Shown: positions 11,212 through 58,849 of the stretch, in pieces | How positions within the stretch are numbered: position 1 is the first letter of the stretch | How the letters are laid out: each line of letters begins with the position of its first letter | NCBI GenBank assembly: GCA_964575455.1 | Contig: CAZNRX010000002.1 | Span: forward strand, 35,539 to 99,538 | Source: an uncultured Anaerolineales bacterium | GTDB lineage: Bacteria > Chloroflexota > Anaerolineae > B4-G1 | Direction: 5' to 3' | Length of the DNA: 64,000 bases | Program-made: the position numbers and the translations under genes | The notes under the pieces: model-generated | Databases searched by the model: none | Seen by the model: only the letters and a program-made list of their open reading frames with translations | What the model was told of the DNA's origin: nothing

Positions 11212-11962
11212 CTCATCCGTTGATGCGTCGAGCAGCGTTGAGAGGAAGAAGGATGCCTCCTATTTCTTCCCCAACAAGATGGGACGAATCTTCTTCCTGG
11301 CGTTAGAAGAGGTCTTGGGGAACACGAAGAGGGACACGAAGGCACCCGAGAGCGCCTGGCGCGCGATTCTGAGCTCGGCCAGGCTGCAGGATCGTCTCGA
11401 TGATTATCCCCCTAACGACTTCGCTGCCGAGTTCTCCTTCGACGAGTTGGGGCGGATTCAACAGGCTCTTGAGGCGTTGTACGGTCTCCGTACTGGTCGG
11501 AGACTGGCGAGACGGACTGGCAGGGCGTGTTTTAGAATCGGCGTTGAGGATTTGCGTCCGGTGCTGGGGATTGCCGATCTGGTGCTTCGGATCCTTCCTC
11601 TGCGTATGAGGTTCCGGGTTGGATTCGAGGTGCTGGCCCACATGTTTGATCGCTACTCGGATCACGCGGTGCGGTTGGAGGAGGATGAGCAGTACTTCAG
11701 GTGGGTCACCGAGCGCTGCGGGGTGTGCTGGGGTAGAGAGACTGACGTACCCTGCTGCGATCTGATGGTCGGTCTTCTGGAGGAAGGGCTCTACTGGCTC
11801 AGCGGGGGCGCGAGTTTCTTCATTGAGGAGAGTTCTTGCATAGCTACCGGGGACCCTGCGTGCGTTATCCTGATTGGTAAGCGTCCTCTGGCTGTGGAAC
11901 GACACGAAGAGGGGCGCGAAGGGCGCGAAAAGGGAGACGAAGGGCACGAAGGGGGGGTATGA
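11201..11962 (+). CDS. V4R (4-vinyl reductase-like) domain protein
   Basis: FPNKMGRIFFLALEEV...CGVCWGR...PCC...LYWLSGG...EESSCIATGDPAC; ATG at 11201 overlaps the hydrolase stop. Confidence 0.78.
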   Translation: MSTNSSVDASSSVERKKDASYFFPNKMGRIFFLALEEVLGNTKRDTKAPESAWRAILSSARLQDRLDDYPPNDFAAEFSFDELGRIQQALEALYGLRTGRRLARRTGRACFRIGVEDLRPVLGIADLVLRILPLRMRFRVGFEVLAHMFDRYSDHAVRLEEDEQYFRWVTERCGVCWGRETDVPCCDLMVGLLEEGLYWLSGGASFFIEESSCIATGDPACVILIGKRPLAVERHEEGREGREKGDEGHEGGV

Positions 11963-13257
11963 TGCGGAAGGTCATTCTTAGGGACCGCAGCGACATCTTC
12001 CCATTCAACGAACCAGCCCGCGATCTTCGGGTGTTGAATAAAAAGCTGTACATTCATCAGGGTGACGTCGTCGATAGGGTCCTGGCCCCTGACTATGTCA
12101 CCGCGGTCCGTGAGGTCGACTCGCTGGCTGATCTTGATGCCAGTGAGGTCGAGACGATTGCGTTTCGAGACAACCTGTTCTTCGACGAGCCTTTCTTGAG
12201 CGAGTTCGTCCGCCGAGCCCGTGCGTCGGGAACCGCCTGTCAGGTTGCCTTCTCGCTCGATGATCCGGCGATGACCAAGCACGCTCTCCCTCTGCAGCGC
12301 GGCATTCGCCGGGAGGGAGACGTTTACGTCGCGGACTTGTGGTACTTCCCGCACGGCGTCGAGTCGAACGTGCGCTACCTGGTCGTGGATACCGAGCCGA
12401 GTGAGATGGGCTACTATCACGTTCCAACGCACATGTCGAACGCGATGGGAGATCTCGTCTACTACGTGCCCACCAAGGGCTTCTGCTCTATCGAGCATTG
12501 GGTGCATACCATCACGGCTAATATCGTCTTTGGCGTCTACGCTGAGGGTGCGCGGCTAGATCGCAAGATCGAGCAGAGTGTCGGCAAGAACCTGAGGATA
12601 CTCTGGCGGGCGATGCTTGAGCGGCGACAGCTTCTGGAGTGCTCGGAGGTGGTGCACATAGGCCGCAACTGCAGTATCGACCCTTCGGTCACGATCCGTG
12701 GGCCGACCTACATCGGCGACAATGTCAGCATTGGCCCAGGTGCCGTCATCGACGTCTCCTACATCGGGGATAACGTCGATATTGGAACCGGCGGGCAGGT
12801 CATGCTGAGTGTGGTGTCGGATCGATGTTTTCTGCCGTTTCGAGCAGCCATTTTCATGAGCGTGATGATGGCTGATTCGATGGTGGCGCAGAACACCTGT
12901 CTGCAATTCTGCAGCATCGGTCGCGACACGTTCATCGGGGCTGGAAGCACCTTCACGGATTTCAACCTGGTGCCGGATAAACCCATCAAGGCGATGAACC
13001 GAGGTAAGTTGGAGGAGACCGGAATGCCCGTTCTTGGAGGCTGCGTGGGGCATAACTGCTTCGTCGGCTCTGGGATGGTGGTCTACCCGGCTCGGTCCAT
13101 CGAGTCCGACGTCGTCTTGCTGGCCTCGAACGAGAGAGAACGGTCACGCGTGATTGATCGCACGATCACCTATGAGGATAGCGATCACTTCACGATCAAC
13201 GGGGCTGATTCTCACCGACGATGGTATCCACGGCGAGGAGGGGAGCGTCGGATCTGA
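11959..13257 (+). CDS. Left-handed beta-helix (hexapeptide repeat) protein, GlmU/acyltransferase-like
   Basis: Repeats IGRNCSID, IGDNVSIGPGAVI, IGDNVDIG, IGRDTFIG, VGHNCFVG; N-terminus loosely resembles an NTP-transferase domain. Confidence 0.7.
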   Translation: MMRKVILRDRSDIFPFNEPARDLRVLNKKLYIHQGDVVDRVLAPDYVTAVREVDSLADLDASEVETIAFRDNLFFDEPFLSEFVRRARASGTACQVAFSLDDPAMTKHALPLQRGIRREGDVYVADLWYFPHGVESNVRYLVVDTEPSEMGYYHVPTHMSNAMGDLVYYVPTKGFCSIEHWVHTITANIVFGVYAEGARLDRKIEQSVGKNLRILWRAMLERRQLLECSEVVHIGRNCSIDPSVTIRGPTYIGDNVSIGPGAVIDVSYIGDNVDIGTGGQVMLSVVSDRCFLPFRAAIFMSVMMADSMVAQNTCLQFCSIGRDTFIGAGSTFTDFNLVPDKPIKAMNRGKLEETGMPVLGGCVGHNCFVGSGMVVYPARSIESDVVLLASNERERSRVIDRTITYEDSDHFTINGADSHRRWYPRRGGERRI

Positions 13258-13265
13258 GCACGTCC

Positions 13266-14279: not shown

Positions 14280-14299
14280 GCTGACCGCGAGGAGGAGAC

Positions 14300-15205: not shown

Positions 15206-15229
15206 CCCAGCAACGATTCCAGACATAGC

Positions 15230-18200
15230 ATGAGTGACACAGGCAAGAACAAGCGGCTGGCTGAGGCATTTAGCAGCCTCAGGCGTGTTAGCCGGGAGAT
15301 CAACACCACGCTGGATCTGCAGAGGATCCTGGATGTGGTGCTGCAGGCCTCCGTGCGCCTGAGTGGCGCGTCCCGCGGAGCCATTCTCGTGCGGGAATCG
15401 GAGGACAGCGAGTTCGATCTGCGGGTCGCCGCCGGCTACAGCGAGGACGAGAGGACGGACATCCGTGACACCTTGCAGGAGCCTGAAGCCCATCCTGTCC
15501 TCGGGGAGGTTCTGCGCACTGAGCAGGCGTTCAGCTTCCCGGGTGCCTGGGCGAGATCGCCCGTCGTCCCGGATCCAGCCTCAAGGGCGGAGAGGGACCT
15601 GGCAGGAAGCCCGTTTGCCCAGGACGAGTACGTCCCGGATGCGCACGCTATGATGGTCGTCCCAGTCTTCTACGCCCAAGCCCTGACTGGTTTGATCGTT
15701 CTGGAGAGCGAAGATCCGGAGGCGTTTGATCCAGAGTTAAGGCGATTCATTGAGGGCTTGGCCGATCAGGCGGCCACAGCAGTTGGCAACGCGAGGCGAT
15801 ATCAAGAGCAGCTTGAGCGCGGTGAGCTGCTTCAGACGCGTGCGGAACAGCTTGCGTCGGTGCTCGAGGTGGCGAAGGCGCTGCGCTCCGATCGCCCTCT
15901 TGAGGACATCCTGGAGGAGGTTGCTTACGGCATCCAGGAGACGGTGGGGTTCGATCTGGTGCTGGTCAGCGTCGTGAAGGGGGATCCGCCTGTGCAGCAC
16001 CGTGTGGCTGCTGCTGGCATTCCAATTCTGGAGTTTGAGCGTATTCAAGATGTGCACCAGCCGTGGTCCCTCGTCGAGAGGGTGATGGAGGATAGATTCC
16101 GTATCAGTCAGAGCTTCTACATCCCGGCCGAGGGGCGTCCGGCGTGGTTTGATGAGGAACTCGATACCCATGCGATTGAGGACGGCACTCTGCCCAGGCC
16201 GCTCCGGCCCAGGCCGCTCCGGCCCAGCTCCCTGCCTGACCACGATCAGAGCATTGTCCGCGAGCCTGGTCACTGGCACCCCAGAGATATGCTGATTGTG
16301 CCTCTCGTTGGCCCTGGGGGCCACGCGAAGGGCGTCATCTCGCTGGATCAGCCGCGCGATGGCCTGATTCCAGATCGGAGCACCGTCGAGGCCGCGGAGG
16401 TCTTTGCGGCTCAGGCGGCTGTGGCGATCGATAATGCCCAGATGGTTGAGATGCTTCAGCGGCGTGCGGACGTCCTGTCTCTCTTCAACGAGATCAGTCA
16501 GTCTGCCACCGCCAAGCTGGCGTTGGACGAGGTCTTGGACGACGTCGTGGAGACGGCGCCACGTTTGTTGCCCTGCGATCACAGCAGTATCTTCCTTCTT
16601 GACGCCGAGGAGCGGCGCTACGTGCTCCAGGCCGTGCACGGATCCCCACTTGACCCAAGGCGGTCCCCCGCCCGCGGTCTCCCCCCATCGCCCAGGCGGT
16701 CTCCGCCCTCGACCCAGTCTCCGCCCATCTCATTCCTCCCGGGTGAGGGGCTTGTGGGTCAGGTCGCCGAGACGGGTGTCCCTTTGACGATCGACAATGT
16801 GGATCAAGCCCGCGGCCTTCTCCTGGCCTCCAGGATCAACATGAGGACCGCAGCCCTGACGCCGCTGACCGTTGGTCACCAGGTTGTGGGCGTTCTCTGC
16901 GTCGGTCGACACGATCCCAGCGACTTCTCGGCAGCCGAGGTGGCCATGCTCTCGGCGTTGGCCGACCAGGTCTCCGTGGCCGTCGATAACGCTCGTCTCT
17001 TCGAGGAGGTGCGCGGTTTCTCTCAAGAGCTAGAGCAGCGCGTTGAGCAGCGCACAGAGGAGCTTGCCGCAGCCATGGAGGAGCTGGCGGAGGAGCGTGA
17101 TCGGGTGGAGGCGCTCTATCGCATCACGTCTCAACTGTCGGCCAGCCTGGACCTGGATCATGTCTTGAACAAGGCCACCGCCTCCATACTGGACGTTGTG
17201 GGCGCCGATCAGGCCGCCACGTTGCTGGTGGACTCGGAGTCGCGCCAAGGCCGTACACCTCCCCTTATCCTACGGGCCATAGTTGGCGAACTGGGTCGTC
17301 CGCCAAGCCCCCAAGGCCACGACCTGCCTCCGGGCGGAAGGCCGACGCGTTTCTCTGTCGGTGAGGGCTTGGCGGGATGGGTGATTGAGGAGCGCGCCAT
17401 CGCCATCGTGCCGGATCTGCAGCAGGATGATCGCTGGGCCGAGCGACGGGACGAGGGCGGTCATACCCTCTCAGCTCGACCCCGATCCGCGCTGGCCGTC
17501 CCCCTGCTGGTCAGCGGTCAGGTGCTGGGAGCGATACTCCTGCTGGATCGTTCGGTCGAATACTTCCAAGAGGAGCACCTGCGCCTCGTGAAGGCGGCTG
17601 CCGTCCAGATTGCTCAGGCCATCAACAATGCCGAACTCTACAACGTGATTAGAGAACAGGCGGAGCGCCTGGGCAACATGCTCAAGGCTCAGCAGGTCGA
17701 ATCCACCAAGAGCCAGGCCATCCTGGAGGGGGTCGCGGACGGGGTGATGGTCACGGACGCCGATGGCGAGGTCATCCTCTTCAACGCCGCTGCGGAGCGC
17801 ATCCTCGACCTGCCGCGCGAGGAGGCCATGGGACGTACCACCCGGCAGATGCTGGGGCTCTACGGCAGTCAGGCGCAGGATTGGATGGAGACCGTTGCCC
17901 AGTGGCGGGAGCATCCCGAATCCTATGCCAGGGATGACTTCCTGGCCGCGCAGCTGGACATTGAGGAGCGTATCGTAAGCGTACACTTGGCGCCGGTCCT
18001 AATGGGCGCGCGCAGCTCCCTTCCGCAGTTTCTGGGCACCGTATCCGTGTTCCGTGATGTCACTGTGGAGGTGGAGGCTGATCGCGCCAAGACCGAGTTC
18101 GTGTCGATGGTATCGCACGAGTTGCGCACGCCGATGACGTCCATCAAGGGGTACACGGACTTGATGCTCATGGAGTCCGTCGGCTCGTTGAGTGATGGAC

Positions 18201-19579: not shown

Positions 19580-19585
19580 AGGAGT

Positions 19586-19969
19586 ATGGTGAAGATCCTC
19601 GTCGCTGAGGACGAGCGAGATATCAGAGACCTGATTCGTTTCACACTCGATCTGGCCGACTTCGAGGTCGTGCTGGCCCAGGACGGCGTGGAGGCTGTTG
19701 AGGAGGCCCTGGCGGAGAGCCCCGACCTCATCCTTCTCGACGTGCGAATGCCCCGCATGTCGGGCTATGAGGCCTGCCGCCGGCTGAAGCATCATCCGTC
19801 AACCAGCGACATCCCCATCGTCTTCCTCTCGGCCAAGGGACAGGAGAGAGAGATCGAGGAGGGGATGGATTCCGGGGCGCTCGACTACATCGTCAAACCC
19901 TTCGCGCCGGACCGGCTGATTGATCAGGTCAGGGACGTTCTGCAGCGGACCGGCGCCCTACCCGGGTGA
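19586..19969 (+). CDS. Single-domain response regulator
   Basis: ILVAEDE, LLDVRMP, FLSAK, YIVKPF; 127 aa. Confidence 0.9.
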   Translation: MVKILVAEDERDIRDLIRFTLDLADFEVVLAQDGVEAVEEALAESPDLILLDVRMPRMSGYEACRRLKHHPSTSDIPIVFLSAKGQEREIEEGMDSGALDYIVKPFAPDRLIDQVRDVLQRTGALPG

Positions 19970-19999
19970 TCTTGAGGACAAGGACGGTCTGACCGAGCT

Positions 20000-24695: not shown

Positions 24696-24727
24696 GCGGC
24701 TTGAGGTGGTGTTCATCCACGTCTCAT

Positions 24728-43117: not shown

Positions 43118-43177
43118 TCATTGGTGGACACGAAGGGCACGAAGGAGGCTTCAGGCGCTATCTGAGGGAGGCGAGGG

Positions 43178-47900: not shown

Positions 47901-48309
47901 GGGAGGAGACGGCCTAGTCTCTGGCGATAGAGCGCTTCTTCGCCAGGCGATTGTCAACTTGCTGGATAACGCGATTAAGTACACGTCGCCTGGCGGGAAA
48001 GTGGCGGCAGGCTTGTCGATCAAGGCGCGCAACGGCAGGAATCAGGCTACGATCCACGTGACAGATACGGGTATTGGCATCGGGCCTGATGAGCAGGTAC
48101 GTCTCTTCGAGAAGTTCTACCGCACAAAGCGGGGCGATCAGTCGGGGGCTTCGGGAACGGGGCTGGGGCTGGCCATCGTTAAGTCGGTCGTGGAACGGCA
48201 CGAGGGCAAGGTGTGGGTGGAAAGCGAGGTGGACGCGGGCAGCACGTTCTATGTCAGCCTGCCGCTCGTCACGGATGAGTCGTTCAATGTGGAGACGTCG
48301 CATCAATGA
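44947..48309 (+). CDS. Membrane sensor histidine kinase (multi-TM, Cache-like, HAMP, GAF, PAS, HisKA, HATPase)
   Basis: SHDLRAPLT H-box, NLLDNAIKY, DTGIGI, GTGLGL; DEVGRLG HAMP motif. Confidence 0.9.
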   Translation: MSFEIWVPWKSLVFLDPTGMEIALLALTGLGAILLFLSSRRECVEAVRSRRGAFLLVGLAMLPLVTTRLLAVRLSAMSPPPLPNIPLNPTLPFAALLTVWPILAAGIWLGAGSALLVGGVSGLLRAGTVTSGIADPLHLALFGFLVARLLRQRRQGWLEQLARQPLAASLLATPIAGGLLFLSAWARVAHSGLAGFDYALQFAQVRTGGLLLEALSAGAVAQILFSINPSLRPVQEADRLSWFRRSLHRKLLVVVVPLILVTTFVLLYAVTTVTLRGARAEAVKDLARDAHSAADEIPNFIHTGQGLLAEFAKDERLSSDDRDELEALLESDLRMGAFFDHLMLFDPDGELVSMYPPAPTGNPELTVQEEDLLARVLMNGAPQISSGHKSHWDEALLSFLMPTRSRTGDPSRFGALVGRTHLQANPAMEGILADLQWASGRGEGFVVDEGGHIVAHPDPGMVLSLWQKDQYRDCIADAGPQGLVCEGRDPVRNTRELLYYLPADGYPWSVVIRLPYEVVLNQARKVAVPLLVLQGVFGAGLVLAIVLVVGRMTGPLKQLANAAERIAKGGLMKSIDVSGADEVGRLGLTLEEMRARLQDRMSDLSLLLEVSQAVSSTLDLSTGLSFVLEGALEGTNADVARAVLVGDGNPSETVISRGEAIEGLDEIERALVAQVEDRGSPVAFPGLGEAAELIRSQGLAGPIEAAVALPVCTKDRMLAVIWIGYTGAHRFEMSKMNFLSMLTNQVAVLVENARLFQAVEGERTRLAAILESVSDVVLVTDQEDRVLLVNSAAEQAFDIKSEAVLGRRLEQTDLAPEVVDAIVGASSTEAPSRELLLPSGRVLYADVSTIESSQGEQLGRVVVMRDITRFKELDDMKSEFLATVSHDLRAPLTFMRGYADRLDVVGELNEKQELYVESILKGVQRIDDLVLELLDLSRIEAGLGVERRPCHLGVIVAEAVSSLRARATEKGVSLQIQPPLNLSDGGGDGLVSGDRALLRQAIVNLLDNAIKYTSPGGKVAAGLSIKARNGRNQATIHVTDTGIGIGPDEQVRLFEKFYRTKRGDQSGASGTGLGLAIVKSVVERHEGKVWVESEVDAGSTFYVSLPLVTDESFNVETSHQ

Positions 48310-48323
48310 TCGGAGGGATAGAC

Positions 48324-48638
48324 ATGAAGATTACAACTCTCCAAGCCATCATGGCAGTGTGTATGTTCTTGCTGGGGCTGTCCTCGTGCATAGCTGGGTT
48401 GTGGACGATTCTATCAAGGCAGTATCAGAGGATGTTGAAGAGTATCTCCGCTCAATCGGCGAAGGTCAGCAGTAAAGCGGTCACAGATATAGGCCTGGCA
48501 CCCCTCATCGAGGCGATGTCGGGTCTCGTGGAGGCGATCGACAGATTGGTTCGCACGTCGATCGGCGTGGGGGTCTTCCTCTGTCTGGCAGGAGTGCTTT
48601 TGTGTGTTGCGTCCTTCTGGATGCTCTCGATGCTTTAG
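48324..48638 (+). CDS. Small two-TM hypothetical protein
   Basis: SD plus ATG, two hydrophobic helices, tight spacing within the gene run. Confidence 0.65.
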   Translation: MKITTLQAIMAVCMFLLGLSSCIAGLWTILSRQYQRMLKSISAQSAKVSSKAVTDIGLAPLIEAMSGLVEAIDRLVRTSIGVGVFLCLAGVLLCVASFWMLSML

Positions 48639-48647
48639 GAGACGCTT

Positions 48648-51600
48648 ATGATTGACATTGAGAAGCGAGAGAGCCGAGTCGGGCACCATCACGACTTGGC
48701 TGTGGCTCACCGCGAGTCTGGGTCCGACAAGGAGGCGATGGCCGAATACCGAAGCGCTCTCCATGAGGCGGACCACCTCTATGCGAGGATCTCTCTCGAA
48801 CTGGGTCTGGTGTTTCAGAGCCGCGGGAGCTACGAGAAGGCGTTGGACGCCTTCGAGCGCGGCCTGTCTCGCGTGCCGGATGAGGTCTCCTGTCTCTTCG
48901 CGGCAGGCGTCACGTTGAACCGGCTCGGTCGCTGCGAGGAAGCCCTGGGGAAGCTGGAACAAGCCCTCGATCATGATGTGGATCGAGCGGCGATCTACCA
49001 GGAGATCGGTCAGGCCTATGGGAGGCGCGGTTGGTACAGCGAGGCCTTACAGGCCCTGCAGCAGGCGCTTGAGTTGAGGTCGGCGCAGTCACCGGATCGG
49101 CAGGCGGGGTCGCGTGCGCAAGCGCAGAGACATCTGGGAGCGAGAAGGGCACCGCTCCATCGTGATACCGCTGCTGTCCTGAGCAAGCTCGGGAGACGTG
49201 AGGAGGCCATTGCCCATCTAGAGCAGGCCCTGGAGCTGCTGCCTGAGGAGGCCGCTGAGTCGCCAGCAGGCGGGTTGCCAACCGTTTACCTGACACCCGG
49301 GATCGCCATCAGCGCTCAAATCCCTGAGTCGGGAGCGGAGGTTGTGCCGACGCAGGCTGCCTGGCAGTGCGAATTGGGGGCGCTGTACGAGGATGCGGGG
49401 CGTCTGCGGGAGGCCGTTGATGCCTATCGCGAGGCTGTGTCGCTGCAGCCCAACCATCCTGTTTGCAACCACTATCTTGGTGCGGCCCACAGACGTCTGG
49501 GTGAGCCCAGGTCGACGGCGTCAACCGATGAGGCTGTGCGCTACCTGCGTCGTGCGGTCGAGCTCTCCCCGAATCAAGCCGAGTGGCGCGCCGAGTTGGC
49601 CGAGGCCCTGGCCGCTTCAGAGAGATGGAAACAGGCGCTGAACGAGTACCGTCGTGCCATTGAGATCGACGCTGAAGAAGCTCTCTATCATTATGGTGCC
49701 GGACGCGTGCTCCATCAGCTGGGCGACTATGGCCCGGCACTGCAGGAGCTGGAACGGGCCACGTCGTTATCCCCCAGTCATGCGGCGTCGCATCATCAGA
49801 TCGGTTTGATACACGAGTCTCAAGGGCGATGGGAGGAGGCGCTTGAGCAGTATCAGCTGGCATGTGCCCTGGCGCCGGATCAATCCGTCTACTACAGGGA
49901 TCTCGGTGTGGCGCATGGTCGGCTGCGCAAGCGTGATGGGGACGGTCGCTATCCCAAGGATGGTGATTATCCCCGGGCACTCGAGGCTCTGCGAAAGGCC
50001 GCCCATCTGGAGGAGTCCGCTGATGTCTATGGGCAGCAAGGGATGGTCCACGAGGACTACGAGGCGTACGACGAGGCGCTGAAGGCTTATCGAAAGGCCG
50101 CTCGGTTGGAGCCTGAGAGAGGAGGTGCCTATCGGCTGCGGGCGGGCTTGGTCTGCCAACGTCTGGGACGACATGAGGAAGCGTTGGAGTTCTTGACAGA
50201 GGCCTGTGACCTGCTGCCGCAGGACCCGACGTCTCACTATCATCTGGGCCGAAGCTATGATTGTCTGGGCAGGACGGATGAGGCTCTGGGCGCTTACCGG
50301 AGGGCGGCCAATCTAGCCCCTCACGAGCCAGTCTATCGGCTGGAGCTGGGACGCGCTGCCCACCGTCTTGGCCGATTGAACGAGGCTCAGAATGAGACGC
50401 GGCGGGCGCTCCAGTTGCACCACGATGACGCCGAGATCAGGGCTCAATTGGGGGCCATTGCCGACGCCAGAGGGGATCGTGATGAGGCGCTGGCTCATTA
50501 CCAACGGGCTGCAGAGCTGGGCCCCGACCAGGCGCGCTACGCGATGAAGGTCGCCGCGCTCTATCGGCGGATGGGCCGGTGCGAGGAGGCCCTGGAGGCG
50601 CTCGAAAAGGGCCTACGGGCGGATCCCAAGGATGCCGATCTCCACAATGAGCTGGGCAGACTCCACCAGGATCAGGGCGACGATGAGAGAGCGCTGAAGG
50701 CCTATGAGGAGGCTGTCGCGCTGCAGCCAGGGGAACCGAGGTACCATCGCAACAGGGCCTCTGCCCTCAGAAAGCTGGGGCGCGTTGACGAGGCAGCGAG
50801 CGCGTTGCGGAAGGCGATTCAGCTCGATGATGAATCCGCGGCAGCATATCACCAGTTGGGCGTTGTCCTTGCGCTTCAGGTAGATAGAGGCCATCTGCAG
50901 CGAAAAGAGGAGGCGCTGGAGGCCTTCCGGACGGCGCTGAAGCTCTCGCCGGAGCGTGCAGAGGCGTACTACGATTACGGCCGGTACTGTCAGCGCCTGG
51001 GCGATCATGGAGAGGCGATCAAGGCCTTGAAGCACGCGCTCGATCCTGCTGGCAACGAGCACGGGGGGCGCGACGATGAACGCGCGTCTCGTAGCCGCCT
51101 CGCGCGGGGCCTGGAACACCAGGGACATGATGCGACGCTGGAACGTGCAAGGCACCGGGACAAGCGTCTTCGCCGGTCAGGCTGGCCCGAGGCCTACTAT
51201 CACCTTGGCCGATCCTATCAGTCGAGGGGGGATACGGAGCAGGCTTTGCGGAACTACAGGCGGGCGGCCGAGCTGGCCCCTCAGGAGGCGGCCTACGCAC
51301 GTGCGATCGGTTTGGTCTATCGCAAGTTGGGCAGGATAGACGATGCGATTAGTCGGCTGGAGGAGGCTGTTGCGCTGCGGCCGGAGGATGCTTCGCTGCG
51401 CAGAGAGTTGGGCGACACGTTTGTCGCCAGAAGATGGTTGCCTGAGGCCCTAGATCAGTATCAGGAGGCGGCTCGGCTGGCTCCAGAGGACGCTGTCTGC
51501 CATCGAAGTGTCGGAACGACGTGGCGCGAGCTGGGCGAGCCCGCAAAGGCGATCGACTCCCTTGAGAGAGCGGTTGGGGTGAATCCCGATGATCCGGAGG

Positions 51601-54419
51601 CGCACTTTGAGCTGGGCCGGACGTACCGCCGCTTCGGCCGAGACTGTGAAGCGGTGGCTGAGTATCAGATGGCTGCGAAGTTGGCCCAGGAGAGGCCGGG
51701 ATGTGATGCCACTCCAGTGTATCATCTCCACCTTGCCGAGGCCCTGCACAGCGTCGGTGAGCGAATGGAGGCTACGGAGGCTCTGTCGAAGGCGATCAGC
51801 CTGGATCCAAGCGACGCTCAAGCTCACTATCGTCTGGGCGTGATGCTTGAGGAGGAGGGTGACCTTGAGAGAGCGCTTGCTGAGTATCGGGAAGCGTCGT
51901 CGATCCGCCCGGATCACGTCCGCTATCGTCACAGCATCGGCTCGGTTCTCTATCGTCTGGGGGATTACGGACAGGCCATAGAGGTCCTGCAGGAGGCATT
52001 GGCGCGCCCGCGCTCCCCCCGGGACGGCGGGGATGCCCATGCCCCGTTGGGGCACGCCTACGCCTTGTTGGGGCGCGCTCATGCGGCGTTGGGTGAGCAT
52101 CCCGAGGCCGTCAAAGCCTATCAGCGGGCGATTGCCTTGGCGCCAGAGGCCGCAGCTTACCATCGTGACCTGGGGTGTCTCTTCCAGGAGCTGGGCGACC
52201 GTGAGGCTGCTGCGGAATCCCTGCAGGAAGCGATCTCTCTCGATGAGAACGACGCCGAAGCGCATCAGGCGCTGGGCGAACTCTGGGAAGCGAGCGCAAA
52301 AGGGGACACGAAGGGCGCGAAAGATGGCGATGCCTCGGCTCTGGAAGCGGCGCTTTCCGAGTATCGTCAGGCGGCCGATCTGGCTCCCCATGCGGTGAGG
52401 AGTCTGCGGGCGTGTGGACGGGTTCTTCGCAAGCTCGGGCGCTATGAGGAGGCCGGGGAGGCCTTGGAGGAGGCTCTGAGGGTCGACCGAGAGCATGCAG
52501 CGTCGCACTATGAGCTAGGGCTCACGCTTGAGGCCCAGGATCAGTGTGAGGCTGCGCGCTCGCACTACAAGGACGCCATTGCGTTGAGCCCCGACAGACC
52601 GGAGTATCGCGTCCGATTGGGCGCTGTCTGGCGGAAGATCGGGCTAAGAGAGCGCGTGCTGCAGCAGGTGGGGGCGTCTGATAGGTGCGTCGCACCAACG
52701 GCAGGTGCAACGCACCGGGGTGAACGCGACCTCGACGAGGGGATTGCCTCTCTTCAGACGGCTGTGGAGCTGGGGGAGGAGTCACCAGCTCTCCATGCAG
52801 AGCTCGGCACACTTCTGTTCTTGCGCGGCCGCCTGGATGAGGCGGTGCCCAAGCTGCGCAGGGCGCTCGAAGCAGCGCCCGAGAACGCTTTCCCCCATCG
52901 GGCGTTGGGCATGGCCTATCGGGAAATCGGTGACTACGAGGGCAGCGTTCGGGAGCTGCGCATGGCGGAGAGCCTTGAGCCTGAGTCCGCTGAGACTCAG
53001 TATGAGCTGGCTCTCACGTTGGAGGGACACGAAGAGGAACACGAAGGGCACGAAAGGGGACACAAAGGGCGCGAAGAAGGACACGAAAGAACCGAGGTCG
53101 GTGCTTCGAAGGGCGAGGCTTTGGAGGCTTTCAGGCGGGCGACGCATCTGGCTCCATCCTGTGCGATCTATCATTATGCCCTGGGCGAGAGGTTGCTGAG
53201 AAGCGGTCGCTATGATCAGGCTGAGGCCTCGCTGGAGGAGGCTTTGAAGCTAGAGCCTGGTGTTGCCTCCTGGTCCGCCACGCTGGGTGACGTGTACGCC
53301 GAGCAGAGCCGTTATGACGTCGCCCTGGAGCAGTATGAGCAGGCCTTGGAGTCGCAGCCGGAGGAGGTGGCCTACCTCCATCGAGCGGCTCTGGCCCACA
53401 ATCACCTTGGGCGCGAGGGGCAGGGTGGTTGGCGTCGCAGCCGTGAGCTGCTGGAGCAGGCCGTGGCGCTGGATCCGGGCAACGCCGAGATCCTCTCCGA
53501 TCTCGGTGACGTCTACTACCGTCAGGGCCAGTATCGCGACGCTGAGGAGATGTACACCCGGGCGGCTCAGCTGGAGCCAGAGAATCCGTCCCACCTGCTT
53601 GATCTCGGCCAGGTGGCCATTGAGCAGGGCGAAACTGACGAGGCCTTGAGCAAATTCAAGGAAGCTGTTGAGCGGGGCGAGGACTACACGCCAGCGTATG
53701 AGCGCATAGGCGCATTGTACGAGCGGAAGCAGCAGTGGGGCAAGTCTCTAGAGGCGTATCGCCAGGCGATAGCCCTACAGCCCGATCATGCTCTCTTCCA
53801 TTTCAAGGTCGGCGGCATTCATAAGCACCTGGGCCAGTACGAGGAGGCCGCTGAACAGCTGGAGAGGGCGGTCGAGCTGGATCCCACGATGACCGAGGGC
53901 TATGGCCAGTTGGGCGAGGCGTATGAGGCCCAACAGCGGTACGACGAAGCGATGCAGGCGTACGAACACGCGATTGTGATAGCTCCGCAGGAGGCGGCTC
54001 ATCACGAACGCATGGGCAGGCTCTGTCGCAGGCTTGGGCATCTGGACAAGGCCCTGGTCCACCTCCGCGAGCTGGTCGAGCTCGATCCGGAGGATCCGAC
54101 AGCCTATTACGAGCTGGGTAAGGTCTATGAAGCCCGTGAGGCGTGTGACGATGCGCTGGAGGCCTACCTGGAGGCGTGCGAACGGGATGCCGGCGAGGCC
54201 GAATATCACTACAGCGCCGGCGTGATGTACAAGCATCTGAAGCGGTATCCGGAGGCTGCTGCCAAGCTGCGCAGGGCTATCAAGCTGCAGCCTGGTCACG
54301 CTGATGCTTACAAGCAGTGGGCTGCGGTGAGCGCTATGTCATTTATCTGGCGCGAACGTAGGGAGACGACGGGGGCAGGGAGCGGGGGAAGGGGTGGAGG
54401 TGCGTCGCACGCGGCTTAG
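48648..54419 (+). CDS. Giant tetratricopeptide repeat protein (1923 aa)
   Basis: Dozens of consecutive roughly 34-aa repeats (..LG..Y...G....A...Y..A..L.P); no signal peptide or catalytic domain seen. Confidence 0.92.
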   Translation: MIDIEKRESRVGHHHDLAVAHRESGSDKEAMAEYRSALHEADHLYARISLELGLVFQSRGSYEKALDAFERGLSRVPDEVSCLFAAGVTLNRLGRCEEALGKLEQALDHDVDRAAIYQEIGQAYGRRGWYSEALQALQQALELRSAQSPDRQAGSRAQAQRHLGARRAPLHRDTAAVLSKLGRREEAIAHLEQALELLPEEAAESPAGGLPTVYLTPGIAISAQIPESGAEVVPTQAAWQCELGALYEDAGRLREAVDAYREAVSLQPNHPVCNHYLGAAHRRLGEPRSTASTDEAVRYLRRAVELSPNQAEWRAELAEALAASERWKQALNEYRRAIEIDAEEALYHYGAGRVLHQLGDYGPALQELERATSLSPSHAASHHQIGLIHESQGRWEEALEQYQLACALAPDQSVYYRDLGVAHGRLRKRDGDGRYPKDGDYPRALEALRKAAHLEESADVYGQQGMVHEDYEAYDEALKAYRKAARLEPERGGAYRLRAGLVCQRLGRHEEALEFLTEACDLLPQDPTSHYHLGRSYDCLGRTDEALGAYRRAANLAPHEPVYRLELGRAAHRLGRLNEAQNETRRALQLHHDDAEIRAQLGAIADARGDRDEALAHYQRAAELGPDQARYAMKVAALYRRMGRCEEALEALEKGLRADPKDADLHNELGRLHQDQGDDERALKAYEEAVALQPGEPRYHRNRASALRKLGRVDEAASALRKAIQLDDESAAAYHQLGVVLALQVDRGHLQRKEEALEAFRTALKLSPERAEAYYDYGRYCQRLGDHGEAIKALKHALDPAGNEHGGRDDERASRSRLARGLEHQGHDATLERARHRDKRLRRSGWPEAYYHLGRSYQSRGDTEQALRNYRRAAELAPQEAAYARAIGLVYRKLGRIDDAISRLEEAVALRPEDASLRRELGDTFVARRWLPEALDQYQEAARLAPEDAVCHRSVGTTWRELGEPAKAIDSLERAVGVNPDDPEAHFELGRTYRRFGRDCEAVAEYQMAAKLAQERPGCDATPVYHLHLAEALHSVGERMEATEALSKAISLDPSDAQAHYRLGVMLEEEGDLERALAEYREASSIRPDHVRYRHSIGSVLYRLGDYGQAIEVLQEALARPRSPRDGGDAHAPLGHAYALLGRAHAALGEHPEAVKAYQRAIALAPEAAAYHRDLGCLFQELGDREAAAESLQEAISLDENDAEAHQALGELWEASAKGDTKGAKDGDASALEAALSEYRQAADLAPHAVRSLRACGRVLRKLGRYEEAGEALEEALRVDREHAASHYELGLTLEAQDQCEAARSHYKDAIALSPDRPEYRVRLGAVWRKIGLRERVLQQVGASDRCVAPTAGATHRGERDLDEGIASLQTAVELGEESPALHAELGTLLFLRGRLDEAVPKLRRALEAAPENAFPHRALGMAYREIGDYEGSVRELRMAESLEPESAETQYELALTLEGHEEEHEGHERGHKGREEGHERTEVGASKGEALEAFRRATHLAPSCAIYHYALGERLLRSGRYDQAEASLEEALKLEPGVASWSATLGDVYAEQSRYDVALEQYEQALESQPEEVAYLHRAALAHNHLGREGQGGWRRSRELLEQAVALDPGNAEILSDLGDVYYRQGQYRDAEEMYTRAAQLEPENPSHLLDLGQVAIEQGETDEALSKFKEAVERGEDYTPAYERIGALYERKQQWGKSLEAYRQAIALQPDHALFHFKVGGIHKHLGQYEEAAEQLERAVELDPTMTEGYGQLGEAYEAQQRYDEAMQAYEHAIVIAPQEAAHHERMGRLCRRLGHLDKALVHLRELVELDPEDPTAYYELGKVYEAREACDDALEAYLEACERDAGEAEYHYSAGVMYKHLKRYPEAAAKLRRAIKLQPGHADAYKQWAAVSAMSFIWRERRETTGAGSGGRGGGASHAA

Positions 54420-54464
54420 CTTCGCACGCTGGGCACGTGCAACGCACCGGTGGGAGGTAAGGAT

Positions 54465-56627
54465 ATGTCGTCAGCGACCAGGTCGACCCAAGATCAGGGG
54501 GCGAAGGTGGTGCAGGAAGCGCAGATGGAGGTGGATCGTCTGATCGCCACGCTCGCCAGCGACGGGCCGACGGGGGACACGAAAGACAACGCGAAGGACA
54601 CGAAGGACACGAGAGCGCCTGAGCACGCTGTGCAGGTGCCGTGGCCGGACGGCGCGTTTGAGAGCATAGAGCTTGGGAACACGAGGGACACGAACGGCGC
54701 GAAGGCACCCGAGGCGGATGAGCCTCGCCTGGCGAGCTCAGACACTGCGTTTGTGCATCTGATCATCTCCAGCAAACGAGCGCTGACGAGGAGATATGGC
54801 AGGCTTGGTTTTCAGCAGCTGGACAGCGATCTGCGCGACCTCAAACAGGCGATCGAGGCTGGGAGTAGGCGGTCTGGGGGCGGACTGCACGTCGGAAGTG
54901 AAAGCCAACCCGGGAGTACACGGCACTCCGGGAGTACACGGCACTCCTATGCTGATCTGGAGGTTATCGTAGCTTACGTCGATGATGAGGCGTCTATGGC
55001 CCGATTTGGGCTCCAGCCTGTGGATCCGACCAACCCATGGCAGGTAAAGAAGCTCGTGGACAGCCTGGATGCTCGGCTCGCTGAGCAAGGGGGGGAGGTC
55101 CGATACTTGCTGATCGTTGGCGGGGATGGGATCATCCCTTTTCATCGCTTGCCCAACCCGGTCGACGACCAGGATTCGGATGTCCCTTCTGACAATCCGT
55201 ACGCCAGTCGGGATGCCAACTATCTGATACCGGAGCGAGCGGTTGGTAGGATGCCTGATGGTGAGAAGGATGGCGCCGGATTCCTCCATAACCTCATTCG
55301 GACCGCGGCGGAGGCCCATCGTCAGTATGGGAGCTCCACCCAGGATAGCCCCCTCAGTGCGGCATCCAAGGGGTTGCTCAGTGTCTTGAGCGCAGTCCTT
55401 GACAGGATAAGACAGCCTGATAGGAACGGCCACGAGCTGGGGTATTCGGCCAGCATCTGGCGGAAGGCATCGCGTGCAGTTTTTCGCGTTATTGCTGATG
55501 ATGTCGATGTGCAATTGAGGACGTGTCCGCCTCTGACGTATGAGGGCTTCCAAGTCGTGGAATCGCCCCATCTCAGCTATTTCAACCTGCACGGTATTGA
55601 GGATGGGCCAAACTGGTACGGACAGCGGGATACTCTCTTCCCGGCTGACTACCCGCTCTTTCCATTGGCTCTGCGACCTCAGGATCCAGGCATCGATGAG
55701 CACGCCAACTCCGTGGTCTTCACCGAGGCTTGCTACGGGGCGAACATCCTGGGGAAGAGCGAGGGCGACTCGATTGCGCTGCGGTTGATGGGTGTGGGGG
55801 CGTTGGCCGTGGTCGGCTCGACTAAGGTCTCCTATGGCTCGATCGCTCCACCTCTGCTGAGTGCAGATCTCGTTGGTAAGCACTTCTGGGAGGGACTGCT
55901 GGTCGGGAGCAAGCGCCATGCCAAGGGGGTAGAGGACGCTCCTATGACGGTTGGCGAGGCCTTGCGACATGCCAAGGTGAGCCTGGCAAGCGAGATGCAG
56001 GAGCGAGAGGGCTACCTGGACGATGAGGATCAGAAGGCCCTTATTAGCTTCGTTCTGTATGGAGATCCTTCGCTGCCGATCACCTCGATTCACGTGGGGG
56101 CGGCGGTGAGCGCCTCGTCTGCTCGTCTCTGTTCTCCGATCATCTGTTCGGACAGGGCGGGTGTCTATCTCGATGCGGTCACGCCGGGGCTAGACGCCAC
56201 GTCTGTGCAGAAGGGTCTACCAGCGAAGCCTGCCTCGGACGAGCTGGTGACCAGGGTGAAGGCTCGCATTGAGACGAGCCTGCCCCATATGTCGCACGCA
56301 AAGGTGCGAGCGAGGCCGTTGACGATGTGCACCGTCGTGTGCGAGGACGGCGACTGTTACCTGTTCGATGAGGGGAGGCGAAGGGGGACGGGGGGGCGTC
56401 GTGCTGTCAGCACCTTCGACGTGCCGCTCTCGCTCGAGCAGAAGGGCTTGAACCGGGAGGGAAGGGGCTGGGCTCTGACGCTGCAGAAGGACATTGCGGT
56501 TAGCGAGTACGAAGGGGACATGCGAGGCGGCGGGCGAGATCGCCCAGGCCCCCACGCGCACCATCAGGTGGTCAAGGTGGTTGTGGACAAGAGTGGGCAT
56601 ATACTGAAGATGGCTGTATCGAAGTAG
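54465..56627 (+). CDS. Cytoplasmic peptidase C25 (gingipain/caspase-hemoglobinase fold) family protein
   Basis: YLLIVGGDGIIPF, SDNPYA, AVGRMP, FNLHG (His, 55590), TEACYG (Cys, 55731), VGEAL..AK, FVLYGDP; no signal peptide. Confidence 0.8.
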   Translation: MSSATRSTQDQGAKVVQEAQMEVDRLIATLASDGPTGDTKDNAKDTKDTRAPEHAVQVPWPDGAFESIELGNTRDTNGAKAPEADEPRLASSDTAFVHLIISSKRALTRRYGRLGFQQLDSDLRDLKQAIEAGSRRSGGGLHVGSESQPGSTRHSGSTRHSYADLEVIVAYVDDEASMARFGLQPVDPTNPWQVKKLVDSLDARLAEQGGEVRYLLIVGGDGIIPFHRLPNPVDDQDSDVPSDNPYASRDANYLIPERAVGRMPDGEKDGAGFLHNLIRTAAEAHRQYGSSTQDSPLSAASKGLLSVLSAVLDRIRQPDRNGHELGYSASIWRKASRAVFRVIADDVDVQLRTCPPLTYEGFQVVESPHLSYFNLHGIEDGPNWYGQRDTLFPADYPLFPLALRPQDPGIDEHANSVVFTEACYGANILGKSEGDSIALRLMGVGALAVVGSTKVSYGSIAPPLLSADLVGKHFWEGLLVGSKRHAKGVEDAPMTVGEALRHAKVSLASEMQEREGYLDDEDQKALISFVLYGDPSLPITSIHVGAAVSASSARLCSPIICSDRAGVYLDAVTPGLDATSVQKGLPAKPASDELVTRVKARIETSLPHMSHAKVRARPLTMCTVVCEDGDCYLFDEGRRRGTGGRRAVSTFDVPLSLEQKGLNREGRGWALTLQKDIAVSEYEGDMRGGGRDRPGPHAHHQVVKVVVDKSGHILKMAVSK

Positions 56628-56646
56628 GTGTGGGGCTCGAAAGACG

Positions 56647-57117
56647 ATGTTGATAGGTGAATTTCGCTGCAGCACTGACGGTGAGGGCCGCTTGATGATC
56701 CCCTCGGCGTTCCGTGACGACCTCGTCGAGGGCGCGACGGTGACGCGCGGCATCGAACGGTGTCTGTTGGTCTATCCTGCCACCGAGTGGCGGACGCTTG
56801 CAGAGAGGATACGGCGTCTGCCCCTGACTAATCAGTCTGCCCGTGCCTTCAATCGCTTCATCTTCTCGGGAGCTGCGGTCTGCCCATGCGGTCATACCGG
56901 GAAGACGAAGAGCGCGAAGGACGCGAATGAGTTGCCGAGCAGGCTGCCTTTGCCCGATCAGCTGCGCCGGTACGCGCACATTGAGGAGGAGGCCATCGTC
57001 GTCGGTCTTCTCTCTCACCTGGAAATATGGTCTCCCGAGCGGTGGCGGAGAGCCAAGTCCTCCTTCGTCGAAGAGGGCGTTGCTCTGGCGGAGGCGTTGA
57101 GTGAATCTGGGATCTAG
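56647..57117 (+). CDS. mraZ: MraZ-like transcriptional regulator
   Basis: MLIGEF...DGEGRLMIP..FR, TRGIERCLLVYP..EW, LEIWSPERW. Confidence 0.85.
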   Translation: MLIGEFRCSTDGEGRLMIPSAFRDDLVEGATVTRGIERCLLVYPATEWRTLAERIRRLPLTNQSARAFNRFIFSGAAVCPCGHTGKTKSAKDANELPSRLPLPDQLRRYAHIEEEAIVVGLLSHLEIWSPERWRRAKSSFVEEGVALAEALSESGI

Positions 57118-57194
57118 AACACGAAGACACGAGAGACACGAACTGGAAGCTGAAGAGCGCGAAGAGCACAGAATGGAGCAGGGGGAGGTCAATC

Positions 57195-58523
57195 ATGGGT
57201 GAAGTGATGAGGGGGATAGGCACCAAACACGAAGAACGCGAAATCTCGGGGCTGGGCGGCGTTCCTGAGCTTGTGAAAGGGTCGGGGCGGCAGGCAGCAT
57301 CTGATAGGTGCCCCGCACGCACGGAACGTGCAGGGCACCGAGGTGGCGCATCCATCAAGGTGATCGGTTTGGGCGGTGCTGGCAGCAACGCGGTCGATCG
57401 GATGATTCAGGTGGGCATCCCGGAGGTCGACTTCATCGCTGCTAACACGGATGCCCAGGCGTTGACCAGATCGGAAGCGCCGTGTAAGATCGTGCTGGGC
57501 GAGAGGTTCGCCGGCGGCTTAGGAGCTGGCGGAGATCCCCTTGTCGGAACTGAGGCCGCTGAGCGGAGCCGGGAGAGGCTCTGCGAGGCGCTTCGTGGTG
57601 CTGACATGGTCTTCATCGCCGCGGGAATGGGAGGTGGCACGGGCACGGGGGCCTCCCCCGTCGTGGCTCAAGTCGCCCGAGAACAGGATGCACTCACGAT
57701 TGCGGTGGTCACGCGGCCCTTCTCGTTCGAGGGGAGCCGGCGCGAGGCAGTGGCTGAGGAGGGGATCAGGCATCTCCAGAAGGAGGTGGATACCCTGGTG
57801 GTCGTCTCCAACGATCGGCTGCTTGACGTGGTCAACCAACGGGTCTCCCTGGACGTCGCCTTCCGCATCGCCGATGAGGTGCTGCGCCAGGGCATTCAAG
57901 GTATCTCTGAGCTGGTGACCCAGCCTGGGTTGATCAACCTCGACTTCGCCGACGTCAAGTCGATCATGGTCGGTCGCCCGGGAACCCGAAAGGCGCGAAA
58001 GGGATGTATGGGAGCGCTGGTATCCATCGGCTGTGGAGAGGGGAAGGACAAAGCGCTGGAGGCAGCCAGGATAGCGCTTGGCAGCCCACTCCTCGACGTT
58101 GCGTCGGTGAAGGGAAGCGATGGTCTGCTGGTCAACTTGACGGGAGGCGAGGATCTCACCTTGGCGGAGGTAGACAGTGCCATGCAGATGATATCTGGTG
58201 CGGCGATGCCGCACGCCGAGATCCTCTTCGGGGCTGTCATCGATCCGAAGATGGAGAATCGCGTTCAGATCACGCTGATCGCTACCGGCCTGGCGATTGA
58301 CGACGAAAAGCACGGAGAGAGTGAACGGCCTGGGGACGGGCGCCGCGCCGGGAGTGAACGCCACTCCGGGAGTAACCACCACTCCCAGCATCCTCGAGCA
58401 TCCACTCCAGTGCCGTTTGACTCGGCCGTGATGTTCGGCCCGGGCATGGGCCGCGAGAGAGGGCTGCTTGCGGAGGCTGTGCCGGCTTTCTTGCGCCAGA
58501 GAGAGGCTGGGAGGCAGGGCTGA
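57195..58523 (+). CDS. ftsZ: Cell division protein FtsZ
   Basis: [30 protein letters not shown] tubulin signature, INLDFADV T7 loop, C-terminal VPAFLR. Confidence 0.93.
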
Positions 58524-58525
58524 CA

Positions 58526-58849
58526 ATGGTTGAGATGGAGGATCGATACGTCGACAAGGCAAGGGAGCTGGTGCTTGAGAGGTTCCCGGAGATGGTTGGT
58601 GCCGAAACGTCTGTGAACACGAAGGGCGCAAGGAGCACGAAACGCGCGAAGGGGGCGCCTGGTCACCCTGGCTCTGCCCAGCGAGGTGGTTCGAGGCAGG
58701 CCGACCTCGCGGGCTCAGGGCCCTGCGGGCGGTATGTGATCACTTTTGAAAAGGACGTCTGCCTGCCCGGAGGCCACAGCCTGAAGCGATTGGTGCGCGT
58801 CACGATGGATAGGTCTGGAGAGGTGGTCAGAATCACGTCTTCGAAGTAG
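58526..58849 (+). CDS. Small hypothetical protein resembling the C-terminal domain of the upstream C25 peptidase
   Basis: ITFEKDV...LVRVTMDRSGEVVRITSSK vs LTLQKDI...VVKVVVDKSGHILKMAVSK. Confidence 0.7.
   Translation: MVEMEDRYVDKARELVLERFPEMVGAETSVNTKGARSTKRAKGAPGHPGSAQRGGSRQADLAGSGPCGRYVITFEKDVCLPGGHSLKRLVRVTMDRSGEVVRITSSK

Follow-up and report, generated by a model that had tools for sequence, protein, structure and literature searches.

Dispersed CACGAAG micro-repeats in protein-coding DNA of an uncultured Anaerolineales bacterium and their likeness to GxxExxY-associated hairpins

The REP/REPIN–RAYT systems, in which repetitive extragenic palindromes (REPs) go together with an IS200/IS605-like Y1 transposase (Nunvar 2010; Bertels and Rainey 2011), are one of the described systems closest to the repeats that concern us here. 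Our subject is a 64,000-nt stretch of DNA from an uncultured Anaerolineales bacterium (contig CAZNRX010000002.1 of assembly GCA_964575455.1), which we call the window, and a family of short tandem arrays of the heptamer CACGAAG that lie within it at 14 loci, mostly in protein-coding genes. Unlike the elements of REPIN–RAYT systems, the window arrays are one-armed, unstructured and mostly coding, and no RAYT gene accompanies them; as a preliminary description of this DNA had stated, the window holds no mobiliser, a Pfam scan of its open reading frames (ORFs) having found no transposase, reverse transcriptase, RAYT or GxxExxY gene. Readings of the arrays as a diversity-generating retroelement, as clustered regularly interspaced short palindromic repeats (CRISPR) or as MraZ operators were also rejected, since reverse transcriptase and cas genes are absent from the window and the motif has no relation to any of these systems.

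Rickettsia palindromic elements (RPEs; Ogata et al. 2000) are reportedly single palindromic elements of ∼100–150 bp. The parallel with RPEs that the preliminary description drew stands insofar as the window arrays are dispersed, lie in frame in unrelated genes, including essential ones, are lineage-specific and are tolerated at surface positions; for example, MraZ, FtsZ, MinC, MinD, a C25-like protein and a TPR protein each carry an in-frame insertion that is missing from their orthologues. The parallel ends there, as the arrays are much shorter (18–67 bp), consist of direct tandem units, contain no palindrome, show no fold, vary in copy number between close relatives and are read in all three frames. 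The arrays have presumably been mobile.

Coding variable number tandem repeats (VNTRs), or minisatellites, offer another comparison. Like them, the window arrays have units of 9 or 12 nt and change length in frame between close relatives, which fits replication slippage; differences of 30–45 nt separate the window from a sister lineage at 90–93% nucleotide identity. A coding VNTR, however, normally occupies one locus and has a unit of its own, whereas the window has a single unit at 14 loci, which belong to unrelated genes, three reading frames and, in part, non-coding DNA. Lastly, the STRR heptanucleotide repeats (Mazel et al. 1990) are said to be cyanobacterial and intergenic with a period of 7, and no gene is known to go with them; the window arrays are like them in being dispersed tandem repeats built on a heptamer and unlike them in sequence, period and location in genes. 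What we describe is a combination of known kinds: RPE-like in-frame dispersed repeats, coding VNTRs and, in other genomes, an architecture like that of REPIN–RAYT systems.

A DNA-level family of dispersed micro-repeats

The arrays form a DNA-level family of dispersed micro-repeats with the core CACGAAG or CGCGAAG, a purine linker and a period of 9 or 12 nt. The preliminary description had called them a 9-bp repeat family with about 14 loci, all in one orientation. The repeat is real and is present at every one of those loci, but its unit is better given as the heptamer core plus 2–5 nt of purine linker: units are spaced by 9 or 12 nt within ORFs and by 8 or 9 nt in the mraZ–ftsZ spacer, and the arrays at 34340 and 57981 are degenerate. 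With a cluster defined as at least two units of [AG]C[AG]CGA[AG] within 16 nt, the window has 14 clusters on the forward strand and one on the reverse strand (at 20691, with a spacing of 13), which is a chance match because the sister lineage conserves it as ordinary coding sequence. The longer motif RCRCGAAGG occurs 19 times (17 on the forward strand, 2 on the reverse), compared with 3.3 ± 1.6 in dinucleotide shuffles. Across 80 other loci that were fetched via their FtsZ genes, mostly from Chloroflexota and other bacteria (1.37 Mb), we find 8 forward and 10 reverse clusters; the forward strand of the window is ∼30 times denser. Nine of the arrays are packed into 6.4 kb, a degree of clustering that 1 of 20,000 uniform simulations reached, and the clustering is strong around the block of TPR, C25-like, mraZ and ftsZ genes. 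Reverse-strand genes, which make up ∼11 kb of the window, have no arrays where ∼2.4 would be expected, a difference that is not significant and is confounded by the strong clustering. The arrays are not an assembly artefact, because four of them are found without any change in a separate Logan assembly, made from run SRR7048220.

What exactly is being repeated, the DNA or the peptide? Six arrays are read in a T-K frame (ACG-AAG; 11321, 52293, 54573, 54676, 56901 and 58615), five in an H-E frame (CAC-GAA; 11901, 33871, 34340, 53024 and 57226) and one, in the FtsZ core at 57981, in an R-K frame (CGA-AAG), while those at 43126 and 57118 are non-coding; because of these three reading frames and two non-coding copies, the arrays are of DNA-level origin, as had been proposed. 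Additionally, forward-strand genes hold 12 clusters, far above the codon-shuffled nulls that had been suggested as a check, i.e. 0.61 ± 0.71 clusters (maximum 3, n = 200) when codon order is shuffled and 1.93 ± 1.21 (maximum 6, n = 200) when synonymous codons are shuffled such that every protein is kept. Since the synonymous-codon shuffles fall far short, the regularity lies in the DNA and is no by-product of the peptides.

A rival account places the selection on the proteins themselves, with charged low-complexity linkers such as HEG and TKD being favored and the likeness of the DNA arising through codon bias. All of the coding arrays do give hydrophilic peptides at linkers, termini or loops, and a His-rich (HEA)8 loop of a cation-efflux protein elsewhere (L195) may be a case of this kind. 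For the window, we regard the account as very improbable indeed, given that one DNA motif yields three unrelated peptides in three frames, that two arrays are non-coding and that synonymous-codon shuffling gives 1.9 clusters versus the 12 observed.

The peptides may bear on where arrays persist. The motif is stop-free in all six frames, and units of 9 or 12 nt cause no frame shift. Read in the sense frames, it encodes GHE, DTK or TRR (mean hydropathy −2.4 to −3.2); the antisense frames encode PSC, LRV or FVS (0.0 to +2.1). The arrays lie at N-termini (MinD, FtsZ), in a C-terminal tail (ORF 11201–11962), in inter-repeat loops of the TPR protein, in inter-domain linkers (MinC, MraZ and the C25-like protein, near its N-terminus) and in a single loop of the FtsZ core. 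When FtsZ is modeled with AlphaFold (22 sequences; mean predicted local distance difference test score, pLDDT, of 64), the model puts the core insert between helix 251–259 and strand 272–282, with pLDDT <50 at residues 265–271, and predicts residues 1–50 (pLDDT <50) and 369–442 to be disordered. As far as such modeling goes, the arrays occupy segments that are predicted to be disordered.

Host genes and relatives

The arrays arose on a branch that the window's organism shares with a single sister lineage. The sister lineage is represented by loci L082, L526 and L527 of JGI sample 3300035158 (39 kb; L-numbers denote comparison loci fetched from other genomes or contigs), which were found by protein searches. 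Two outgroups, GCA_964421785.1 (L083 and L523, 32 kb) and L525 (2.5 kb), are 75–83% identical to the window at the nucleotide level and amount to 34.8 kb together; L525 was ruled out as sister lineage by its ∼81% identity, despite coming from the same JGI sample, and serves as the second outgroup. In the species-level genome collection, the best match to the window FtsZ reaches only 58%. The sister lineage has arrays at all 13 of the 14 sites that could be checked, with a different copy number at about six of them. The outgroups have no clusters on either strand and lack an array at 10 of the 11 sites compared (11321, 11901 and 58615 have no outgroup counterpart); the arrays that they lack include those of the MinC linker, two TPR loops, two C25-like sites, the FtsZ N-terminus and the mraZ–ftsZ spacer. 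The lineage-specific, in-frame insertions that the preliminary description expected are thus borne out by gaps opposite the arrays in MraZ, FtsZ, MinD and C25-like orthologues, and distant orthologues do not carry the same peptides.

Between window and sister, every length change within genes is a whole multiple of 3 nt and keeps the frame. The units themselves change through A/G transitions, of which the CACGGAG-type units of the sister are an example. Because the sister has the arrays with changed copy number and the outgroups are without them, the arrays therefore behave like lineage-specific, frame-neutral VNTRs. Another coding VNTR, unrelated to CACGAAG, is an 18-bp tandem repeat (CAGGTGACTGCGTCGACC, 4.3 copies at 38512–38588) that encodes (QVTAST)n at the N-terminus of GluRS (gene 38503–40116) and has one copy in the sister (L527, 7680–7790); since this repeat also differs, at ∼4 versus 1 copies, in-frame tandem length change is common in the lineage. 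The GluRS gene belongs to a pair of adjacent class I Glu/Gln-type tRNA synthetase genes (36778–38490 and 38503–40116), of which one has GlnRS-type C-terminal domains and the other Anticodon_2 (GluRS-type).

The host proteins are unrelated to one another: ORF 11201–11962, MinC, MinD, a 1923-aa TPR protein, the C25-like protein, MraZ, FtsZ and a 107-aa protein. ORF 11201–11962 (253 aa) had been labeled V4R, a label for which we obtain no Pfam match. Its first array (11321–11350, forward strand like all of those that follow) has two units at 12-nt spacing and reads GNTKRDTKAPE, with 15 extra residues (45 nt; GGTKGNTKSTKRGTEGTKKRDTMVPE) at the same site in sister locus L526; its second (11901–11953, ∼5 units) makes up the C-terminal tail, ERHEEGREGREKGDEGHEGGV up to the stop, and this tail has a different length and sequence in the sister. 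In MinC, two units (33871–33890) encode AKREGHERAR in the inter-domain linker, where sister locus L527 has RARREGHERPG and outgroups L523 and L525 have no array. The degenerate array at 34340–34370 encodes MDTEPHERHETEA at the N-terminus of MinD, which is longer by 5 aa than in 6 of 12 aligned homologues and by 10 aa than in the other 6; L527 has this array too. The two-unit array at 43126–43146 (GGACACGAAGGGCACGAAGGA), which had been described as a bEBP leader, is intergenic and non-coding, 32 nt upstream of the start of a sigma-54 activator gene (43178). Here the array adds no length but takes the place of outgroup DNA: the aligned stretch of L523 is about as long and unrelated in sequence, and L523 has a GGCARGA array of its own ∼40 nt further upstream.

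The remaining nine arrays begin in the giant TPR protein, where a loop at 52293–52323 holds two or three units (SAKGDTKGAKDGD; SAKRDTKGTKDGD in the sister and a different repeat family in outgroup L083) and another loop holds the longest array of all (53024–53090, ∼7 units, EGHEEEHEGHERGHKGREEGHERTE), which is 36 nt (12 aa) shorter in sister locus L082. The C25 label of the next host (54450–56627) has support from precomputed matches of its orthologues. Its N-terminal region contains four units at 54573–54620 (GDTKDNAKDTKDTRAPE), an array that is 42 nt (14 aa) longer in L082. The same protein has three units at 54676–54713 (GNTRDTNGAKAPE), an array that is 30 nt (10 aa) longer in the sister and ends there in CACGGAG-type units; the outgroup has neither. 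The ends that the arrays at 11321 and 54676 had been said to share, GGGAACACGA...GAAGGCACCCGAG, are present, and in appearance they are degenerate units more than the termini of an element.

In MraZ, about three units (56901–56930, GKTKSAKDANE) lie between the two MraZ domains and code for ∼9 residues of a 13-aa insert, which the window and L082 share and which is a gap in L083. The non-coding array in the mraZ–ftsZ spacer (57118–57173) has three units at 8/9-nt spacing and one or two more; it is rearranged in the sister, and the outgroup spacer has no array. The two units at 57226–57243 fall in a predicted 50-aa N-terminal extension of FtsZ that occurs in the window and sister only, and they would be part of a 5′ leader instead if the true FtsZ start lies downstream. 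Within the globular core of FtsZ, two degenerate units (57981–58003) in the third frame lie in a 10-aa insert of the H8–S7 loop, which is a gap in 18 of 21 aligned homologues and is replaced by a different 5-aa insert in two (P0002 and P0003); the sister has the canonical AACACGAAAGGCGCGAAAGGG at this site. Besides its 5-aa H8–S7 insert, P0003, the FtsZ of L083, bears a further 6 aa of its own, GDGVYR, within the GTPase domain (alignment A1, columns 171–176), and therefore the same FtsZ loops accept different inserts in different lineages. The last array (58615–58653, ∼4 units) encodes VNTKGARSTKRAKGAPG in the 107-aa protein downstream of ftsZ, where the sister has VDTKGARNTKNTKGMSG.

The unusual gene order at 48306–58849 (histidine kinase, 110-aa membrane protein, giant TPR protein, C25-like protein, MraZ, FtsZ and 107-aa protein) is kept in L082 and L083. 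In this clade, ftsZ comes straight after mraZ, and the mraW, ftsL or mur genes that usually separate the two are missing.

CACGAAG hairpins and GxxExxY genes in other genomes

When 185,579 species genomes are scanned for a run of three units, at least 120 loci match, from Verrucomicrobiota, Planctomycetota, Acidobacteriota, Desulfobacterota, methanotrophs, cyanobacteria and Chloroflexota. In ∼50 cases among the matches listed, the array is one arm of a hairpin with three plus three units, of the form (A/T)CCACGAAG-NN-CACGAAG-NN-CACGAAG, followed by a spacer of 13–190 bp and the reverse complement. In the examples that we read, complementarity between the arms takes in much of the linkers and in some cases runs past the arrays; for four hairpins that were folded as single-stranded DNA, the z-scores were −8 to −15. 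Most of the arrays in other genomes, among the matches listed, are intergenic. Chloroflexota also have in-frame arrays of their own, for example in a GyrA tail (L131) and in a distant C25-like protein (L126), where the first unit is CCACGAA, as in hairpin arms. Several long array-bearing "ORFs" in high-GC genomes (L182 and L130) proved to be antisense artefacts. Neither of two scans for array-rich relatives gave anything lineage-specific: with RCRCGAAGAGGRRCRCGAAGG, most of the metagenome matches that were examined had arisen by chance in GC-rich coding DNA that encodes EREEEREG-type peptides, and with CACGAAGRRGRRCRCGAAGG, a further scan of species genomes gave one match per locus among the matches listed.

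Some hairpins come with a gene. At L163, L177 and L183, a gene of ∼125 aa sits in the hairpin loop, and L107 has one that is placed between two hairpins. This last gene matches TIGR04256 "GxxExxY" (E = 1e-43) and PF13366 PDDEXK_3 (E = 3e-42); the other three, found with HMMER seeded on the L107 gene, align with it and share the GxxExxY motif. At L107 (974–1637, Syntrophobacter sp. SbD1), the GxxExxY gene and the CACGAAG hairpins that flank it stand between two livG/livF-like ABC-transporter ATPase genes, and this cassette looks like an insertion into an operon. Only GxxExxY genes were found when other cargo between inverted arrays was looked for.

The association also holds in an unbiased sample of 80 GxxExxY loci that were fetched by protein alone. 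CACGAA arrays lie within 120 bp upstream of the gene at 17 of the 80 loci and, on the reverse strand, within 120 bp downstream at 19 of 80, compared with 0 of 148 control windows. An exact 6-mer arrayed upstream and its reverse complement arrayed downstream flank 34 of 76 GxxExxY genes (∼45%); these 6-mers include CACGAA (11), CACAGA (8) and CACGGA (7). GxxExxY protein similarity tracks heptamer type (0 of 2000 permutations), so gene and arms are inherited together. The forward array abuts the start codon in these cassettes, and over-long ORF calls at GxxExxY loci read HEKHERHE. The preliminary description had suggested, with the caution that it needed checking, a link between such repeats and GxxExxY genes; with the counts above, this link proves true in other genomes. 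Cassettes occur in Anaerolineae genomes as well (L249, L257, L263 and L267). Neither the window nor L082 or L083 has a GxxExxY gene.

How does this system compare with REPIN–RAYT? The two are alike in that short hairpin-forming repeats are dispersed in many copies, that a small gene is flanked by its own repeats in inverted orientation and that gene-less copies outnumber gene-bearing ones. They differ in that the protein of this putatively mobile system is a ∼125-aa PD-(D/E)XK protein (PF13366) and not an HUH/Y1 enzyme, and in that each arm has three heptamers, whose sequence depends on the subfamily (CACGAAG, CACAGAG or CACGGAG). The GxxExxY gene is usually present in multiple copies per genome. 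A bold reading, which we offer tentatively and think doubtful, is that GxxExxY proteins and heptamer-array hairpins constitute a REPIN–RAYT-like system, in which the ∼125-aa protein would maintain or mobilise hairpins across phyla and viral contigs, and that single arms would have invaded the coding DNA of the window's lineage, including the FtsZ core, MraZ, MinC and MinD, as frame-neutral inserts with hydrophilic peptides, to evolve there as VNTRs. Rfam contains no family for the hairpins or the window, and we found no paper that describes these repeats or an array architecture around GxxExxY/PF13366/TIGR04256; PF13366 is listed as "Unknown" (PMC3424549).

Viral contigs carry CACGAAG hairpins and arrays too, the arrays often as one-armed triplets on one strand. 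For example, four such triplets, nearly identical to one another and all on the same strand, occur in L534, where each follows closely on the end of an ORF, and on viral or metagenome contigs L534, L582, L579 and L350 intergenic mosaics of heptamer arrays (GTCAGAA, CACAGATGAA and GACGCGGAGAAC) lie beside CACGAAG triplets. Relative to neighboring genes, arrays are 9 sense to 21 antisense in genomes and 20 to 8 in viral contigs, conflicting ratios that rest on crude gene calls.

Origin of the window arrays

With four features of the hairpin family, we can place the window arrays alongside it. Core and period agree: spacings in the window and sister are 9 nt (29 cases) and 12 nt (9), versus 9 nt (305) and 10 nt (112) elsewhere. 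The flank profile of the window and sister units, with its purine linkers, is similar to that of hairpin-arm units. For a GxxExxY gene beside the arrays or elsewhere in the genome, a further feature, the sequence covered was the 64-kb window, L082 and L083, and it contains none. The window arrays do not have two inverted arms of about three units, and two that were folded show no self-complementarity (z-scores of +1.7 and +0.4). The signature of the outermost unit, (A/T)CCACGAAG with TTCAC or TTATC ahead of it, is missing as well; window arrays start with GG(G)A(A)CACGAAG. Because two of the four features, the inverted arms and the outermost-unit signature, are missing, we claim resemblance and probable derivation rather than membership, and what would tie the window arrays to the GxxExxY system is the identity of the motif.

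The reading that we prefer, to which we would give a probability of about 0.5, is that the window arrays are single arms or fragments of the CACGAAG hairpin–GxxExxY family that were copied locally, resized by slippage and tolerated as hydrophilic, frame-neutral peptides. The motif and its 9-nt period would derive from the arms of a hairpin-forming inverted repeat with three CACGAAG units per arm, and single arms or fragments of it would have been seeded into hypervariable protein segments. From there, copy-and-paste between arrays, by ectopic gene conversion or template switching, may have spread them locally, and replication slippage may have resized them. Their survival in genes would be owed to a frame-keeping period, to the lack of stops and to hydrophilic tripeptides (HEG, TKD and TRR) that may be tolerated at termini, inter-domain linkers and surface loops.

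A number of observations weigh against derivation from hairpin arms. Neither the 64-kb window nor the 39 kb of the sister contains an inverted partner, a hairpin or a GxxExxY gene, and the outermost-unit signature is absent from the window, as described. Both the window units and the hairpin units were chosen by the same core pattern, such that the flanks and the period are the only independent evidence. Orientation is also a difficulty: peptide selection alone may not give 14:0, as both non-coding arrays face forward too, and within the genes of other genomes, as crudely called, sense copies prevail by a modest margin (18:8 and 32:22). All of the arrays are on the strand with positive GC skew, where nearly all genes run in the same direction, and because arrays, genes and GC skew share a strand, gene orientation and replication direction are confounded as causes of the 14:0 ratio. 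Finally, the outgroup has same-strand families of its own (GGCARGA and an 18-mer) at some of the same sites, and therefore this clade makes dispersed arrays without a visible tie to GxxExxY.

These outgroup families deserve a description in their own right. GGCARGA arrays (period 7, e.g. GGCAAGAGGCAGGAAGCAAG) number 17 on the forward and 0 on the reverse strand of GCA_964421785.1, at 4657–4714, 5328–5369, 9006–9047, 11095–11136 and 11243–11286 of L083 and at 10844–10878, 15964–16043, 17512–17591 and 18825–18880 of L523. They are found in coding DNA (MinD tail, TPR protein, C25-like protein and FtsZ linker) and in intergenic DNA, and the family includes a 66-nt intergenic repeat with two copies at 94% identity. 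They are absent from the window and sister, such that the two families are reciprocal, partly at the same loops. The 18-bp dispersed repeat CTCCGGGAGTRNACRCCAC is in frame, contains a small palindrome (CACTCC/GGAGTG) and encodes SGSTRHS or TPGVxxT. In the window, it is always on the forward strand, in the C25-like protein (54910–54947), in the C-terminal linker of FtsZ (58348–58385) and in MinD (∼35060–35080, as SGSGRHS); the FtsZ copy is gone from the sister via a 45-nt deletion. Outgroup L083 has many more, i.e. 8 copies in 11.5 kb (among them those at 9032–9110, 9323–9365 and 11078–11145).

Might the arrays, then, be entirely homegrown? Under this alternative, hypervariable, disordered segments of this clade's proteins would readily duplicate in tandem, and ectopic gene conversion or template switching would copy one array type between sites (concerted evolution). 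Each lineage would thereby acquire a purine-rich family that dominates in it, and the likeness to the hairpins would be a coincidence or the product of a shared mutational bias. The reciprocity of the families, with CACGAAG in the window and sister only, GGCARGA in the outgroup only, all on the forward strand and some loops shared, speaks for it, as do the other coding repeats that vary between window and sister (the GluRS QVTAST repeat and the 18-mer), the clustering within 6.4 kb and the lack of a hairpin or GxxExxY gene in the window or sister loci. Against these points stand the heptamer and its 9-nt period, which together form a non-chance element across phyla and viral contigs, the GxxExxY cassettes of Anaerolineae and the recurrence of in-frame CACGAAG arrays in unrelated Chloroflexota proteins; a coincidence of 7-nt core and period is possible but is not the simplest explanation. 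On balance, we consider a homegrown origin possible and rather unlikely.

It is also conceivable that the arrays are functional cis-elements, for example oriented DNA- or RNA-binding sites or purine-rich mRNA elements for translation or stability, that are selected to co-regulate, e.g., the division cluster. The strict single orientation, which extends to the two non-coding copies, would be explained by such a role, as would the concentration around mraZ–ftsZ–minCD, the one-armed intergenic triplets of viral contigs L534 and L582 (several per contig, on one strand) and the forward array that abuts the start codon in GxxExxY cassettes. Yet the arrays of window and sister have drifted apart freely, in the number of copies as well as in sequence, the outgroups manage without arrays, orientation relative to neighboring genes is inconsistent elsewhere (the 9:21 and 20:8 ratios above) and no Rfam family matches. 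The E. coli MraZ operator, which consists of TGGGN repeats, is unrelated in sequence. We judge a regulatory role to be distinctly improbable.

One short DNA repeat can enter and persist in conserved division proteins, i.e. in the globular core of FtsZ and in MraZ, MinC and MinD, where the arrays add variable disordered peptides within a very short evolutionary distance, peptides that annotation pipelines will read as low-complexity. For PF13366/TIGR04256, a large family whose function is unknown, the architecture around its genes provides a concrete, testable hypothesis for the substrate of the GxxExxY protein. And with its reciprocal, lineage-specific families at shared protein loops, this clade is a natural system in which to study how dispersed micro-repeats are seeded and homogenised.

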